Shown: in pieces, positions 996 through 11,997 of the stretch | Numbering within the stretch: the first letter of the stretch is position 1 | Layout: every line of letters starts with the position of its first letter | Origin: Heterodontus francisci | Taxonomy: Eukaryota | Direction: 5' to 3' | Length of the DNA stretch: 64,000 nt | NCBI RefSeq assembly: GCF_036365525.1 | Contig: NW_027141093.1 | Location: forward strand, 4,340,001 to 4,404,000 | Program-made: the position numbers and the translations under genes | The notes under the pieces: generated by a model | Told to the model about the DNA's origin: nothing | Seen by the model: only the letters and a program-made list of their open reading frames with translations | Database searches by the model: none

Positions 996-1559
996 AGAAC
1001 AGGATGTCTGGCAGATTCAGTGTGAGACGATAACACTGCCGGGTAAAAGCCACTTTCCAACTCCAATCTTAACACAGGAGATTCCCCAAACAGCTGCAGT
1101 AAGGTGCTGTAAACTGCTGGAAGCGCATGTGTGTGGAAATGGTGATGTTACTGAGGAGGTTTCTTGGTATAGAATGGACTGTGTTTCGGTGGGAATATTA
1201 CTGAGTGTTAATTGTAGCGGGACCATATTTAAAAACTCTGTCTTTCTGGAAAGCCTTGAAAGGTCGAGTCTGGAAGGGTTTGCGTGGAGAGCTGGGTTTC
1301 GGTTCGACTGTTAATAAAGGGTTTGAAATTGGCAGCCCGGAGGAAACAGGAGGTGGAGCTGAAAGATAAGGGGCCGTTCTCTCTCTGTCTGTCACTCTGG
1401 GTGTCTCCTTCCCTCTCGCTCTCTGTTTAATCTTCACTCTTGTCTCCTCCCCTCCCTGCACTCACTCTGCCTTTCTCAGTCCGGGCGGCCTGTAAAAAAG
1501 AAGGAGGCTGACGGAATCAGTCTCTTTTATTGTGCACTGATTTGAGGCAAGAATTATCA
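996..1559 (+). promoter_or_regulatory. H4 upstream/promoter region and 5'UTR of unit A, ending at the A of the disrupted ATG
   Basis: Colinear with 51145-51719, which leads directly into an H4 ATG (gaattatcA here vs gaatcatcATG there). Confidence 0.85.
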
Positions 1560-2203
1560 GGGTGGCTGTTGTGGGGAAGAGACGGTCGCCCACCTCCTCC
1601 TGGAATGTGTCTTTGCAAAGCAGGTGTGGAAAGGGATGCAGTGGTTTTTGTCGAGGTTCATCCCAAGCAGCTCTAGAACACAGGAGTCTGTGCCCTACGG
1701 GCTGTTCCCAGGGACGCACACCGAGACAAACATCAACTGCTGCTGGAGGACTATCAATTCGGTGAAAGACGCCCTTTGGTCTGCCCGAAACTTGCTGGTC
1801 TTCCAGCGCAAAGAGTTGTCCACGACCGAATGTTGCAGACTGGCACATTCCAAGGTCCAGGACTACGTGGTGAGGGACGCACAAAAGCTTGGGGCAGCCA
1901 CAGCAAAGGCTCAATGAGGAAAGACCACTGTGTAAGGTCCACCCACCAAGCTGAGCGGAGGGGCTGGATCCATGGGAAACCCCTCGAACCTATCGGGAAA
2001 ATTTTGTGTGCTGTAAATGTAGAAATGTATATGGCATGACAATGAAATGGAAGAGTTGTGAGGCAACTCGTGATTGTATAGAAGGAAACTGATCACCTTT
2101 GCACTGTTTGTATTTTTTGACTTGATGCTGTTTTAAATTGTTTGGGAATGTAATTTTTACAGATTTTTATGAATAAAGTATATTTTGAAAAGTAAAAAAA
2201 AAA
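1560..2203 (+). mobile_element. Tx1-clade LINE, 5'-truncated copy Y, inserted in the H4 start codon
   Basis: ORF2 C-terminal zinc-knuckle region, 3'UTR, AATAAA and poly(A) ending at 2203, followed by H4 sequence GTCTGGCAG. Confidence 0.9.
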
Positions 2204-2212
2204 GTCTGGCAG

Positions 2213-4400
2213 TATACCAGAGTATGGTCCTGGTCGGCAGCATATTAGAATCCATGAGGAAAGGCATCATCACCCTCATCTACAAGCGGAAGGGGGAGGG
2301 GGCCGAAATCAGAAATTGGCGGCCCATCTCACTGCTTAACATCGACTACAAGATTCTGTCAAAAGTCATAGCCAGTCGAGTCAAGTCTGCTCTGGAGTTG
2401 GTGATTGACCCTGATCAGACCTGTACTATATTAGGCAGGAAGATCTCTGATAGTCTCGCGCTATTCAGGGATACGATCACCTATGTATGGGACAGGAGGG
2501 TGGCACCTGCCTCATCAGCCTGGACCAGGAGAAGGCTTTTGATAGGATATCGCACACCTACATGATGGACGTACTTTCCAATATGGTGTTTGGGGAGGGA
2601 ATCTGCAATTGGATCAAACTGCTCTACACAAACATCAGTAGCGCAGTCTCAATCAATGGGTGGGAATCAGAAAGTTTCTCGATCCAATCTGGAGTCAGGC
2701 AGGGCTGTCCTCTCTCCCCTGTCTTGTTTGTTTGCTGTATTGAACCCTTTTCTGAGTCTATTAGGAAGAATGCGAGTATCAGAAGGGTAACAATCCCAGG
2801 CAGTGGAGGCACTCAGGTTAAAACCTCCCTGTACATGAATAACGTCGCCATTTTCTGCTTGAACCCGCTGCCTGTGCGCAGACTGATGAGCATCTGTGAC
2901 CAGCTCGAACTGGCCTCGGGAGCCAATGTTAAACACGGCAAGAGCGAGGCCATGTTCTTTGGGAACTCAGCTGACCGATCCTTTGTCCCCTTCACCATTA
3001 GGTCAGACTACCTGAAGGTGCTGGGGTATGGTTTGGAAGGGCTGGGGCGTGCACCAAAACCTGGGAGGAACGAGTAGCCAGGGTACAACATAAGCTGAAC
3101 ATGTGGGAGCAGCGATCTCTCTCTATTGTGTCAGGTTACTGTACGTGGTGCAGGTCTGGCTCATACTGCACTCCTACACTGTGGTGATCACCTGAGCCAT
3201 TTTCCGTTTCATCTGGGGATCCAAAATGGACCAGGTCCCGAGGAACACGATGTTCAATCCTCTGGAGAAGGGCGGGAAAAATGTACCCAACATCGCCCTC
3301 ATCCTGATGGTTACCGTTGTGTGCGGCTGGATCAAGCTGTGTGTAGACCTCCAGTACGCAAACTCCAAGTGTCACTCCGTGCTGAGGTTCTATCTGTCCC
3401 CGGTGTTGCGAAGGATGGGCCTGGTCGCATTGCCATGGAACGCTCCATCCAGTTGGACTGTGCCGTACGTAACACCTATCCTTCATGGAAAAGTTTCTGC
3501 GGAAAAACACCTTTGACCACCAATCCATCAGGCACTGGTCTGCACAGAATGTTCTCAAGACCCTATGGGAAAAGAAGATGGTGGATCCTGTCGGATGGTT
3601 TCCCGAGCAGACTTCCAAAGTCATTTGGCGGAATGCCCCATCACCAGAACTTTCAAACAAGCACCAAGATGTAGCTTGGCTGATGGTGAGAAGAGCCCTC
3701 CCCGTCGGATCCTTCCTGCATGCCCGAAGTCTCACCCCCTCTGCACAATGCCCTCGAGATGGCTGTGGTGGGGAAGAGATGGTTGCCCACCTCTTTCTGG
3801 AATGTGTCTTTGCAAAGCAGGTGTGGAAAGAGATGCAATGGTTTTTGTCGAGGTTCATCCCAAGCAGCTCTGTAGCACAGGGGTCTGTGCTCTACGGGCT
3901 GTTCCCAGGGACGCACACCGAGATAAACATCAACTGCTGCTGGAAGACTATCAATTCGTTGAAAGATGCTCTTTGCTCTGCCCGAAACTTGCTGGTCTTC
4001 CAGCGCAAAGAGTTGTCCACGACCGAATGTTGCAGACTGGCACATTCCAAGGTCCAGGACTACGTGGTGAGGGACGCACAAAAGCTTGGGGCAGCCACAG
4101 CAAAGGCTCAATGAGGAAAGACCACTGTGTAAGGTCCACCCACCAAGCTGAGCGGAGGGGCTGGATCCATGGGAAACCCCTCGAACCTATCGGGAAAATT
4201 TTGTGTGCTGTAAATGTAGAAATGTATATGGCATGACAATGAAATGGAAGAGTTGTGAGGCAACTCGTGATTGTATAGAAGGAAACTGATCACCTTTGCA
4301 CTGTTTGTATTTTTTGACTTGATGCTGTTTTAAATTGTTTGGGAATGTAATTTTTACAGATTTTTATGAATAAAGTATATTTTGAAAAGTAAAAAAAAAA
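2213..4400 (+). mobile_element. Tx1-clade LINE tandem copy 2 (X body with Y tail), frameshifted RT
   Basis: RT motifs NWRPISLLNIDYKILSK, DQEKAFD, SGVRQGCPLSP, YMNN (for YMDD); CPRDGCGGEEMVAHLFLEC knuckle; poly(A). Confidence 0.92.
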
Positions 4401-4409
4401 GTCTGGCAG

Positions 4410-10167: not shown

Positions 10168-10554
10168 TTAGATGACATTTTGTCTGTTTTGCTTTTTCTG
10201 GGAGCTCTGAGCGCTGGTTTTCCTGGGTAGCACCCCGCCCTGAGCGATGGTCACCCCTCCCAGCAGCTTGTTGAGCTCCTCGTCGTTGCGGACAGCCAGC
10301 TGCAGGTGTCTGGGGATGATGCGGGTCTTCTTGTTGTCCCGGGCCGCGTTACCGGCCAGCTCGAGGATTTCAGCTGTCAGATACTCGAGCACAGCAGCCA
10401 GATCGACCGGGGCTCCGGCACCCAAATGCTCAGCATAGTTGCCCTTTCTCAGGAGCCTGTGAACACAGCCCACCGGGAACTGCAGTCCAGCCCGGGAGGA
10501 GCGGGACTTGGCCTTGGACCGAGCTTCCCTGCCGGTCTTTCCTCTTCCAGACAT
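10168..10554 (-). pseudogene. H2A: Histone H2A, defective (24-nt deletion in the docking domain, stop read-through, core substitutions)
   Basis: [16 protein letters not shown]..; GGVLP jumps to RKTSAQ; TAA>CAA versus the paralog at 53171. Confidence 0.9.
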
Positions 10555-11337
10555 TTCCACAATCTCACAAATACTTTCATAAATGGATAATTTCCGCAGC
10601 ATTTACTTTACTTAAAGACTGAGAACTCTCCTCAATGGTCGGTACTTAATTCACCTCATTTGCCTATATTCTTCACCAATCAGGTCACTGACCAACAGAA
10701 GAGGGCGGGATTTACCCGCCACGACATCAGAAGCAGAGAATTTGTCAATTTCAAAAAGCCCGCCAATTTCATCGTCGGAAAGGAGCGGATTAAAATAAAT
10801 GTCATCCTTAGTCAAAGATTTAAAGTCCCTTCTCTTGATTTTGTTTTATTCAACTTGTAAAATGTTATTTAAATTGTGACTCATTCTACAATCGCTTTCA
10901 AACTGTCACGGGTGGGGCATTCATTGGCCTGAAGTGAAATACTCAGTTTAGCTTTGAATCAGAGCCCAGTGTCCTTCTCTGAAAAGAGGGAGCCGGATCA
11001 AGTCCTCAAACGGCCCTTAACTTGCTCTACAATAATCCCATCCCAGGCTGTTACACTGCGGAGAGTTGCTGTTAATAAAATGATTAATCAGTGAAGGGAT
11101 GAAGGTCTAATCCTTACCGCTGAAATCAGCTGTTAATGCGGTCATTCAGGGGCTGTGAAAAACGAGAATAAGAGCAGCTTTAAGCAAAACAAGTGAAGGC
11201 GGGTGATCAGATTATGGGTTCATGTTCGGTTAATAACAGGAGATACAAACACAGCATTGGGATCGTTATCATATTATACATTGTCTTCAAGTGATTTCAT
11301 AGAGATGTCGGATGCAGCTTTTTCAGAGATTGTTGGT

Positions 11338-11353
11338 GGCTCTTAAAAGAGCC
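11338..11353 (-). promoter_or_regulatory. Histone 3' stem-loop of H2B-A
   Basis: GGCTCT-TTTA-AGAGCC on the minus strand. Confidence 0.88.
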
Positions 11354-11390
11354 GTTGTGTTTGATCTGTTTTTCAGTCCATTGTGCAGTT

Positions 11391-11997
11391 TCACTTGGAG
11401 CTGACGTACTTGGTCCCTTCCGACACGGCGTGCTTGGCCAGCTCCCTGGGCAGCAGCAGGCGCACGGCGGTCTGGATCTCCCGGAGCTGATGGTTGTTGT
11501 AAGGGGCCAGGCGGGAAGCATCACCCGCGATACGCTCGAAAACATCGTTCACAAACGAGTTCATGATGCTCATGGCCTTGGAGGAGATGCCGGTCTCGGG
11601 GTGAACCTGCTTCATCACTTTGTAGATGTAGATGGAGTAACTCTCCTTCCTGCACTTCTTGCCGCCCTTTGTTGATGGTTTATTTAAGGTTTTCTTGGCG
11701 CCCTTCTTAGGAGCTGCTTTCTTCTCTTTTTTTATTTCCAAAATAGACTTTATTCATAAAAATCTGTTAAAAATACATTGCCAAAGTGTTTCAAACAGCA
11801 CCAAAAAATACAAACATTGCAAGGGAGATCAGGTTCCTTCAGCACAATCATGAGTTGCTTCACAACCCTTCCATTTCACATTTGTCATGCCAATTACATT
11901 TTTACATTTACAGCAAATGAAAATTTTCCCGATACAGTTCGAGGGGTTTCCCAGGGGTACAGCCCCTCAGTTCAGCTTGGTGGGGGGACCTTACCAT
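11391..11997 (-). pseudogene. H2B: Histone H2B pseudogene interrupted after the ATG by Tx1; several internal deletions
   Basis: ATG at 11997-11995 in the same leader as intact paralogs; body [25 protein letters not shown] resumes at 11726. Confidence 0.93.
11727..11994 (-). mobile_element. Tx1-clade 3'UTR-only insertion (268 bp) at the H2B start
   Basis: Starts gtaaggtccccccacc (at the ORF2 stop) and ends tttatgaataaagtctattttggaaat-A7; homologous to ~8510-8780. Confidence 0.92.

Follow-up and report, generated by a model that had tools for sequence, protein, structure and literature searches.

Histone genes in a stretch of 64,000 nucleotides (nt) of the shark Heterodontus francisci (RefSeq assembly GCF_036365525.1, contig NW_027141093.1, forward-strand positions 4,340,001 to 4,404,000; the whole stretch is called the window) are interrupted at their start codons by copies of a long interspersed nuclear element (LINE) that, judged from its sequence, is a Keno-type member of the Tx1 clade. 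The window holds two H4-H2A-H2B units plus two extra H2B genes. A sequence-only reading had described insertions at H4 (two) and H2B (one), and all of the junctions lie where it placed them. The uninterrupted paralogs that it named (H4 at 51719; H2B at 25028, 26640 and 54826) do represent empty sites, and the copy at 42176 does stand in non-histone DNA, so specificity is not absolute. Identities below are to L167, a full-length dispersed copy used as the reference throughout.

1490..1561, + strand: promoter (TATA-like box) and leader of the interrupted H4 to the remnant start codon, delimited by the junction against the empty paralog
1563..2203, + strand: copy Y, the 3' 640 bp of the Keno-type LINE with poly(A); 90.4% identical to L167 positions 4680-5318
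2204..2212, + strand: target-site duplication GTCTGGCAG, equal to H4 nt +3 to +11; also present with X alone in L163
2213..4400, + strand: recombinant 2.2-kb unit (X body, Y 3' end), from the map of diagnostic sites
4401..4409, + strand: second copy of the target-site duplication GTCTGGCAG
4410..6597, + strand: second recombinant 2.2-kb unit, 98.8% identical to the first
6601..8780, + strand: copy X, the 5'-truncated original insertion, with reverse transcriptase (RT), zinc-binding region, 3' untranslated region (3'UTR) and degenerate poly(A); 87.7% identical
8781..9068, + strand: H4 coding sequence from the G of the ATG; decayed pseudogene
10168..10554, - strand: H2A of the interrupted unit, start uninterrupted; decayed
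11390..11726, - strand: H2B coding sequence downstream of copy Z; decayed
11727..11994, - strand: copy Z, a 268-bp 3' fragment in sense to H2B; 89.2% identical to L167 positions 5049-5317
11995..12055, - strand: H2B start codon, leader and TATA box upstream of Z
42176..45316, - strand: off-target copy of the Keno-type LINE in non-histone DNA, likewise multiplied along with the cluster; 89.6% identical
51719..52030, + strand: uninterrupted H4 paralog (empty site)
53171..53560, - strand: uninterrupted H2A paralog (empty site)
54449..54826 (- strand), 25028-25405 (+ strand) and 26263-26640 (- strand): uninterrupted H2B paralogs (empty sites)

A self-comparison of the window matched 998-1559 to 51145-51719 at 87%, and the empty H4 site at 51719 reads ATCATCATGTCTGGCAGAGG. 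The leader of the interrupted H4 runs to 1559 and copy Y begins at 1563, with ATGG retained at this junction in other genomic copies; GTC stands between the end of the second 2.2-kb unit (6597) and the start of copy X (6601). Copy Z is joined by its 5' end after the ATG and by its 3' end at about +8 of H2B; the insertion removed a few bases of the target and left no target-site duplication. The stem-loop of this H2B lies at 11314-11358. A motif search of the window for H3 found none, and H3 occurs elsewhere in the genome, on contig C45 and as a fragment on C28.

The H4 array records more than one event. The 3'UTRs of X, Y and Z are 79-83% identical pairwise, a divergence which indicates three separate templates, and Y is 87.7% identical to X. 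The middle 2.2-kb units are mostly X-type at the first 20 diagnostic sites and Y-type at all later ones, and on this map they are evidently X/Y recombinants from unequal crossing-over. Other loci carry X alone with the duplication (L163), Y plus X (L164-L166) or a collapsed X/Y product (L230 and four more loci), states which place X first, then Y in the upstream copy of X's target, then crossing-over. Thus, of the three independent insertions that had been counted in the window, the separate templates stand, but Y re-inserted into X's own target copy and is not independent evidence for histone targeting.

Elsewhere in the genome, sense insertion at histone starts extends to all four core histones. 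Events were separated by gene, 3' junction, 5' truncation point or identity, which is 88-94% between histone events as against 95.5-99.5% among duplicates of one event. Copy Y, the two middle units, hundreds of cluster duplicates and two transduced H2A tags were not counted, and the H4 insertions on C356 and C712 (93.7% identical, sisters in the tree) were counted once. After this de-duplication at least 12 distinct sense insertions remained, three in H4, four in H2A, four in H2B and one in H3, all between nt -2 and +16 of the coding start.

H4: X/Y at AT^G; C45 at +6/7; C356/C712 at A^TG
H2A: L098 at AT^G; L248 at AT^G; L249 at +7; a 50-bp insertion common to C23, C45 and C46
H2B: Z; L158 at +7; L159 at +10 to +14; L161 at AT^G
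H3: C45 at the ATG, with the duplication ATGGCCAGAACCA

The two H2A insertions at AT^G, L098 and L248, are 90.5% identical, whereas duplicates of L098 are 97.7-98.3% identical. The events span several contigs and separate clusters, and they differ in age, from old copies 88% identical to the reference to young ones at 98-99%. Every histone copy with a visible 5' end is 5'-truncated. Within a contiguous 200 kb of C45, a region chosen for its H3 event, two of the three distinct family events lie at starts, and one H2A event turned up unsought beside the H3 event.

We scanned neighboring positions genome-wide with two-gap patterns, each covering about 50 positions. The H4 scan from +4 to +52 gave 15 matches and the H2A scan from -3 to +47 gave 51, none of either beyond +7. 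The H2B scan from +17 to +67 gave a single match, a variant of Z, and the H3 scan from -10 to +40 returned only six copies of the ATG event. Deep in H4 (+193 to +243) there were no matches, and an antisense H2B scan (-22 to +28) found no histone event and one non-histone match. Leader positions upstream of -2 in the scanned H4, H2A and H2B windows likewise held no event, and no new event appeared in the control ranges H4 +8 to +52, H2A +8 to +47, H2B +17 to +67 and H3 +3 to +40. Overall, 12 events occupy the 76 positions of the start zone and none the 290 control positions (p=6.4e-9), and random insertion predicts 0.04-0.09 start-zone events genome-wide against the at least 12 found. The 5' coding ends of histone genes are a genuine recurrent target, entered in sense only and at particular positions. 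Template-switch chimeras of histone mRNA were considered and rejected: the copies sit between a genomic promoter and a gene body, with duplications or deletions at the target.

The main target of the element is the gene for U2 small nuclear RNA (snRNA). A pattern of poly(A) followed by the U2 site matched 389 times genome-wide, and 80 of 100 among the matches listed lie in tandem U2 arrays on C41 and have tails of many different lengths. The flank begins at U2 nt 39 in about two thirds of the matches listed and a few bases earlier in the rest. These junctions are sense-oriented, and Rfam recognizes U2 on both sides of the copy in L219. Full-length copies were recovered, as the sequence-only reading had proposed to do, both within a U2 gene (L225) and at a dispersed site (L167, headed by U2 sequence at Rfam E=3e-7); those seen all begin in or with U2 sequence. 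At dispersed sites, retrocopies tagged with U2 or U1 (e.g. L203, L212 and L253) indicate read-through from such genes. On C41, 6.27-6.32 Mb (L217-L226) is a tandem U2 array with a unit of about 577 bp and many young copies with long poly(A), adjoining inverted pairs of U1 genes.

Most copies lie elsewhere. A 20-mer taken from the 3' end has 14,294 exact matches genome-wide (control, 0), so the 389 U2 junctions amount to about 3% of 3' ends, an approximate ratio since the two patterns differ slightly, and one below the 20% specificity criterion given in excerpts of PMC4494074. Among dispersed 3' ends, histone flanks numbered 0 of 30 and 0 of 100 listed, in overlapping, position-ordered samples from C1 and C2 only. 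Two copies on C2 (L091, with a clear duplication, and L092) have a short stretch of the H2A 5' end as a tag, flanked by A runs on both sides. These tags are best read as 3' transductions from further H2A-start copies, some of which would thus have been transcribed and re-inserted. Of 24 sequencing runs listed in a search for RNA evidence, most of them presumed to be RNA, none matched half of the sequence words (best share 0.21).

Two other snRNA genes are hit at a similar distance from their starts. A search with the genome's own U1 motif, which replaced an earlier motif (0 matches) that is absent from two U1 genes examined, gave three matches, all at nt 40, against 0.0025 expected. Two of them lie on C41 near intact U1 genes and have different tails, and in the third, on C13, poly(A) follows the U1 part. 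U5 gave three matches at two distinct sites, nt ~30 (Rfam model position about 31) and nt 37, which lie in two U5 variants; Rfam confirmed one of the two examined. Histone genes have 53-65 nt from TATA box to ATG. If transcription is assumed to begin 32 nt behind the first T of the TATA box, at the CATT or TATT word present there in H4, H2A and H2B, then nine histone insertions, those for which a promoter can be seen, map to +30 to +42. Thus U2 (nt 38-39), U1 (nt 40), U5 (~30 and 37) and the histone genes are all entered about 28-42 nt from the start. Because histone leaders are about 22-35 nt long, this zone happens to cover the start codon; U1 and U5, which have no start codons, are hit at the same distance, so the ATG looks coincidental.

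The reference copy L167 encodes an ORF1 with CCHC knuckles and an ORF2 with an open 1136-residue frame that has APE, RT and zinc-binding regions (ORF, open reading frame). ORF2 matches PF03372 at 21-227, PF00078 at 517-758 and PF13966 at 961-1033; its endonuclease is thus APE-type and N-terminal to the RT, not restriction-like. Its best solved relative in PDB is LINE-1 ORF2p (E=3e-86; R2, E=2e-19), and its closest homologs are unnamed amphibian ORF2 proteins at 42-44%, with no named Tx1 reference among 55 matches. Tx1-clade traits are present, namely two ORFs, a CCHC ORF1, an APE-RT-zinc-binding ORF2, a poly(A) tail and target-site duplications of variable length (about 9-16 bp). The Tx1 assignment would rest on the Keno site and this architecture, the RT matching the L1 group by PDB. 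We call the element Keno-type: it uses the U2 site as Keno does, but its share of U2 junctions is below the 20% specificity criterion. ORF1 (L167:4668-5795, - strand) also matches both Pfam ZCCHC3 RNA-binding domains besides its knuckles, which fits an origin of vertebrate ZCCHC3 from such an ORF1. In L161 (G000:C1570:676800-684800), the young H2B AT^G insertion, the start codon is in frame with the C-terminal part of ORF2, from the C-terminal side of the RT to the zinc-binding region; this could be chance.

With moderate confidence, we favor promoter-proximal, position-guided sense insertion into snRNA and histone genes. Autonomous Keno-type copies sit in tandem U2 genes, as their position and U2-headed retrocopies show, and would presumably be read from the U2 promoter. 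Insertion would proceed by target-primed reverse transcription with a loose endonuclease. Its nicks fall mostly at pyrimidine-purine steps, on the top strand T^A, T^G or C^A, and its looseness would send most new copies to unrelated sites. To this is added a positional bias, evident as a pattern: RNA polymerase II genes with short, non-polyadenylated products are entered in sense within a narrow zone some 28-42 nt downstream of the start, and at U2, the main site, true sequence recognition helps. Target-primed reverse transcription nicks the bottom strand, which here is the template strand of the host gene, and polymerase II pauses 20-60 nt behind starts. The ribonucleoprotein of the element probably concentrates where snRNA and histone genes are transcribed and nicks exposed DNA ahead of the polymerase. 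It would reach these genes by way of the machinery and nuclear location that they share (Cajal and histone locus bodies), and the nick would fall on template-strand DNA laid open immediately in front of a polymerase that is initiating or paused. According to excerpts of published work, highly expressed histone and snRNA loci come together at Cajal bodies (PMC4802181; PMC2196410) and the Integrator complex serves both classes of gene (PMC4349240). Redundant histone genes would tolerate insertion; a few interrupted units were then multiplied hundreds of times by cluster duplication, and the H4 array of the window grew by same-site re-insertion together with unequal crossing-over. More tentatively, an APE-type LINE may here choose its targets through the host transcription apparatus itself, by way of Cajal and histone locus bodies and a template nick about 35 nt behind the start.

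One family enters U2, U1, U5 and four histone genes on the same strand and at nearly the same distance although these sites have no sequence in common, which suggests that targeting has a second layer based on position. If so, the U2 specificity of Keno would be a sequence refinement of a broader promoter-proximal rule. Such a rule would explain how Tx1 elements switch among small-RNA targets and gain U1 and U2 heads, and the insertions would form a natural record of polymerase II-exposed DNA on snRNA and histone genes in the germ line. The genome has young copies in which ORF2 is intact, making the targeting question directly testable.

Several points weigh against position-guided insertion. 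The genome-wide counts cover a 6.0-Gb genome by exact patterns and so miss diverged copies. The start zone of -2 to +16 was drawn post hoc from the data, and the antisense and deep mid-gene controls are one window each. Histone starts were derived from TATA spacing, and since all histone genes have much the same spacing between TATA box and ATG, a rule based on the ATG and one based on the start of transcription cannot be told apart from the histone data by themselves; preference for the latter rests on four to five U1 and U5 events. The polymerase III gene U6 gave no insertion among 23 motif-bearing copies, a weak negative as many are probably pseudogenes, and U4 gave no match with a motif unverified in this genome. 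In histone genes Integrator acts at the 3' and not at the 5' end (PMC4349240, in excerpt), and it does not by itself explain the offset. Some sequence is also shared among targets: T^RTCTG of H4 and H2A and ATCT of U5 recur in U2, T^GGTT is common to H2B and U1, and five sites share the short word RT^RKYT. Additionally, 5 of 100 listed dispersed flanks start with TCTG against about 0.5 expected. The shared words and the TCTG bias imply that endonuclease preference picks the base within the zone, and this preference may explain more than we have credited.

The strongest alternative builds on that preference. A relaxed endonuclease could read U2-like words (~RT^RKYT) wherever they are accessible at nucleosome-free 5' ends of highly active genes, so that near-cognate cutting in open chromatin would need no tether to polymerase or nuclear body. 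The common word is visible in U2 (TAGT^ATCT), U1 (AGGT^GGTT), H2B (AGAT^GGTT), H2A (AAAT^GTCT) and H4 (TCAT^GTCT), H4, H2B and two of the H2A genes are all joined at AT^G, and the TCTG-starting flanks agree with it. However, the word is missing from about half of the histone sites and from U5 nt 37. Used histone positions are no more U2-like than unused ones (4.0 against 3.3 of 16, p=0.11, scored for 11 of the 12 sites on the empty paralogs of the window or C45 and not on the event's own gene), and U2-likeness as the sole explanation of the histone sites was rejected on this result. Better-scoring positions in the leaders and at H4 +194 were unused, as were 40 pyrimidine-purine steps in the control windows, and both the accessible leader upstream of -2 and the antisense window lack events. 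We therefore regard near-cognate cutting as unlikely.

Less likely again is a general bias toward positions 30-40 nt downstream of any strong polymerase II start site, under which insertions in single-copy genes would have been purged, survivors would remain only in multicopy genes, and the link to Cajal bodies would be incidental. It draws on the same positional data as position-guided insertion into snRNA and histone genes, and the multicopy polymerase II genes that were queried are mainly those for histones and snRNAs. Of 30 dispersed C1 sites, only 1 has a CpG-island-like flank, which proves to be element sequence. This test thus lends no support to general promoter targeting among the copies that survive, but it counts weakly against the bias since purging predicts the same.

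The sequence-only reading had proposed a dedicated Tx1 family that uses histone genes as a safe harbor and their S-phase promoter for expression, an idea now largely refuted and one to which we assign very little probability, for a family or a subfamily alike. In its favor are the at least 12 distinct histone sites, the two H2A-tagged retrocopies on C2, and 429 filled H4/H2A starts against 1334 intact ones, both counted by exact pattern. The histone copies do not form a lineage, however. They are scattered in the tree and interleaved with U2 and dispersed copies, requiring 9 changes for 12 rows, a value equally low in 50 of 500 shuffles; they form one clade in 0% of 200 bootstrap trees, and at least five changes are forced by the starred branches. 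Young histone copies are 97.5-99% identical to a copy in a U2 array. The full-length copies seen are U2-linked and the histone copies with a visible 5' end are truncated, which speaks against use of the S-phase promoter. The genome-wide check of 3' flanks divides accordingly: most flanks are unrelated DNA and U2 is the main target, as set out above, while the histone starts hold far more events than chance predicts. In the samples from C1 and C2, histone-flanked copies fall short of 20% of independent copies, and distinct histone sites come to about 12 in all.

Copy number is no evidence for such a family either. Of the 30 examined loci that best match the 3'UTR of X genome-wide, all carry X's degenerate tail and H4 flank, and 29 of 30 loci like the 42176 copy have one and the same flank; ranking copies by similarity to the window 3'UTR was therefore discarded as a test of targeting, as it yields only duplicates of the same insertions. 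Among the filled H4/H2A matches listed, 85 of 100 carry X's single ancestral tail, and the X-bearing unit has been amplified hundreds of times. The interrupted starts (429 of 1763, about a quarter, a proportion that bears on histone gene counts and annotation) arose mostly by amplification of a few dead units. Chance with hitch-hiking, in which random array insertions were amplified or mid-gene insertions were removed by selection, accounts for most of this copy number, the amplification being real, but is the least credible explanation. It would have to yield at least 12 separate events where 0.04-0.09 are expected; these vary in age (88-99% identity to the reference) and do not share 5' junctions where seen, and the offset is the same in U1 and U5. 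Selection, for its part, removes insertions but cannot lift the start-zone count above the random rate.

Among known elements, the closest is Keno, a Tx1-clade, APE-bearing, U2 snRNA-specific non-long-terminal-repeat retrotransposon (PMC4494074, PMC4640811, PMC6136364; these and the papers below were available as excerpts). The 3' flank of Keno and Utopia begins at U2 nt 39 (PMC4640811). The shark element resembles Keno in its APE, RT, poly(A) tail, sense orientation, flank from U2 nt 39 and residence in U2 arrays. It differs in that only 389 of about 14,294 3' ends lie at U2, with thousands dispersed, and in its recurrent secondary sites in U1, U5 and four histones at a similar distance from the start. 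Keno was reportedly described by Kojima and Fujiwara in 2004. It is known from frogs, fish, lancelet and hydra, and the excerpts mention no histone, U1 or U5 sites for it. Tx1-Mar/SINEU of crocodilians is likewise Keno-related, with weak preference, two hot spots lacking sequence similarity, tandem same-site insertions around the target-site duplication and U1- or U2-derived 5' heads; its target is instead a Mariner transposon, and its heads are ascribed to template switching (PMC4494074). In the shark, by contrast, insertion into U1 at nt 40 is direct, and a target-site duplication of 13-16 bp there would leave a U1 head about 53 nt long. Utopia shares the U2 site and, in some families, weak specificity, but it has a restriction-like endonuclease, not APE, and belongs to an unrelated lineage (PMC4640811). 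A U5-targeting Tx1 family (PMC4494074, Fig. 3 legend) indicates that U5 can be a Tx1 target, whereas in the shark one family covers U2, U1, U5 and histones.

Tx1 targets in general comprise U2, U5, 5S, satellites, microsatellites and transposons, and target choice of APE LINEs is held to be set mainly by endonuclease sequence preference (PMC4494074). In a characiform fish, Keno lies at U2 and histone amplicons have only short LTR-like matches (PMC6136364). The word "histone" does not occur in PMC4494074 or PMC4640811, and the excerpts of PMC8869645 and PMC9004415 contain nothing on LINE insertion at histone 5' ends. The titles and abstract openings searched, a set outside which Repbase Reports fall, include no LINE at histone 5' ends and no Keno with U1, U5 or histone sites. 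Outside the LINEs, Tf1 inserts at polymerase II promoters and Ty3 and Ty1 at polymerase III genes. There, too, host machinery and not sequence sets the position relative to the transcription start, but these elements are integrase-based and insert at or upstream of the start, unlike the shark LINE, which enters 28-42 nt inside and in sense.

Same-site tandem insertions (element, poly(A), target-site duplication, element) occurred at 4 of 29 dispersed sites on C1, and a first insertion seems to make its own upstream target copy hot even at non-U2 sites. The C1 loci are L035/L036, L038, L041 and L048, with L174 a further case, and up to three insertions stand in a row. A subset of copies ends in a run of G before a short A tail (L121-L126, L207, L246, L247 and L251-L253), including the H3 event, the short H2A event, one U5 and one U1; these perhaps reflect one source lineage or untemplated G addition.

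Units of H4-H2A-H2B, many of them decayed, were found on C28, C35, C334, C712, C1323, C1395, C1806, C1960 and others, and such units are amplified across tens of megabases. A rearranged unit (L109, L110, L117 and L118 on C35; L133-L141) joins the first ~90 nt of H2A to the last 250 bp of X, followed by H4, near the Z-bearing H2B, and this deletion product was amplified several times. Within the window, an older Tx1-like 3' fragment (630-913, - strand, ~70% identical) lies about 650 bp upstream of the H4 start, antisense to H4 and away from any start codon. Self-comparison revealed low-complexity tandem repeats with a unit of about 46 bp at 15800-17000 and 48200-49400. Long 88-90% identical segments, direct and inverted, occupy 19400-37700 and 56600-63500, where other LINE fragments are abundant, and these segments show internal segmental duplication of the histone cluster.

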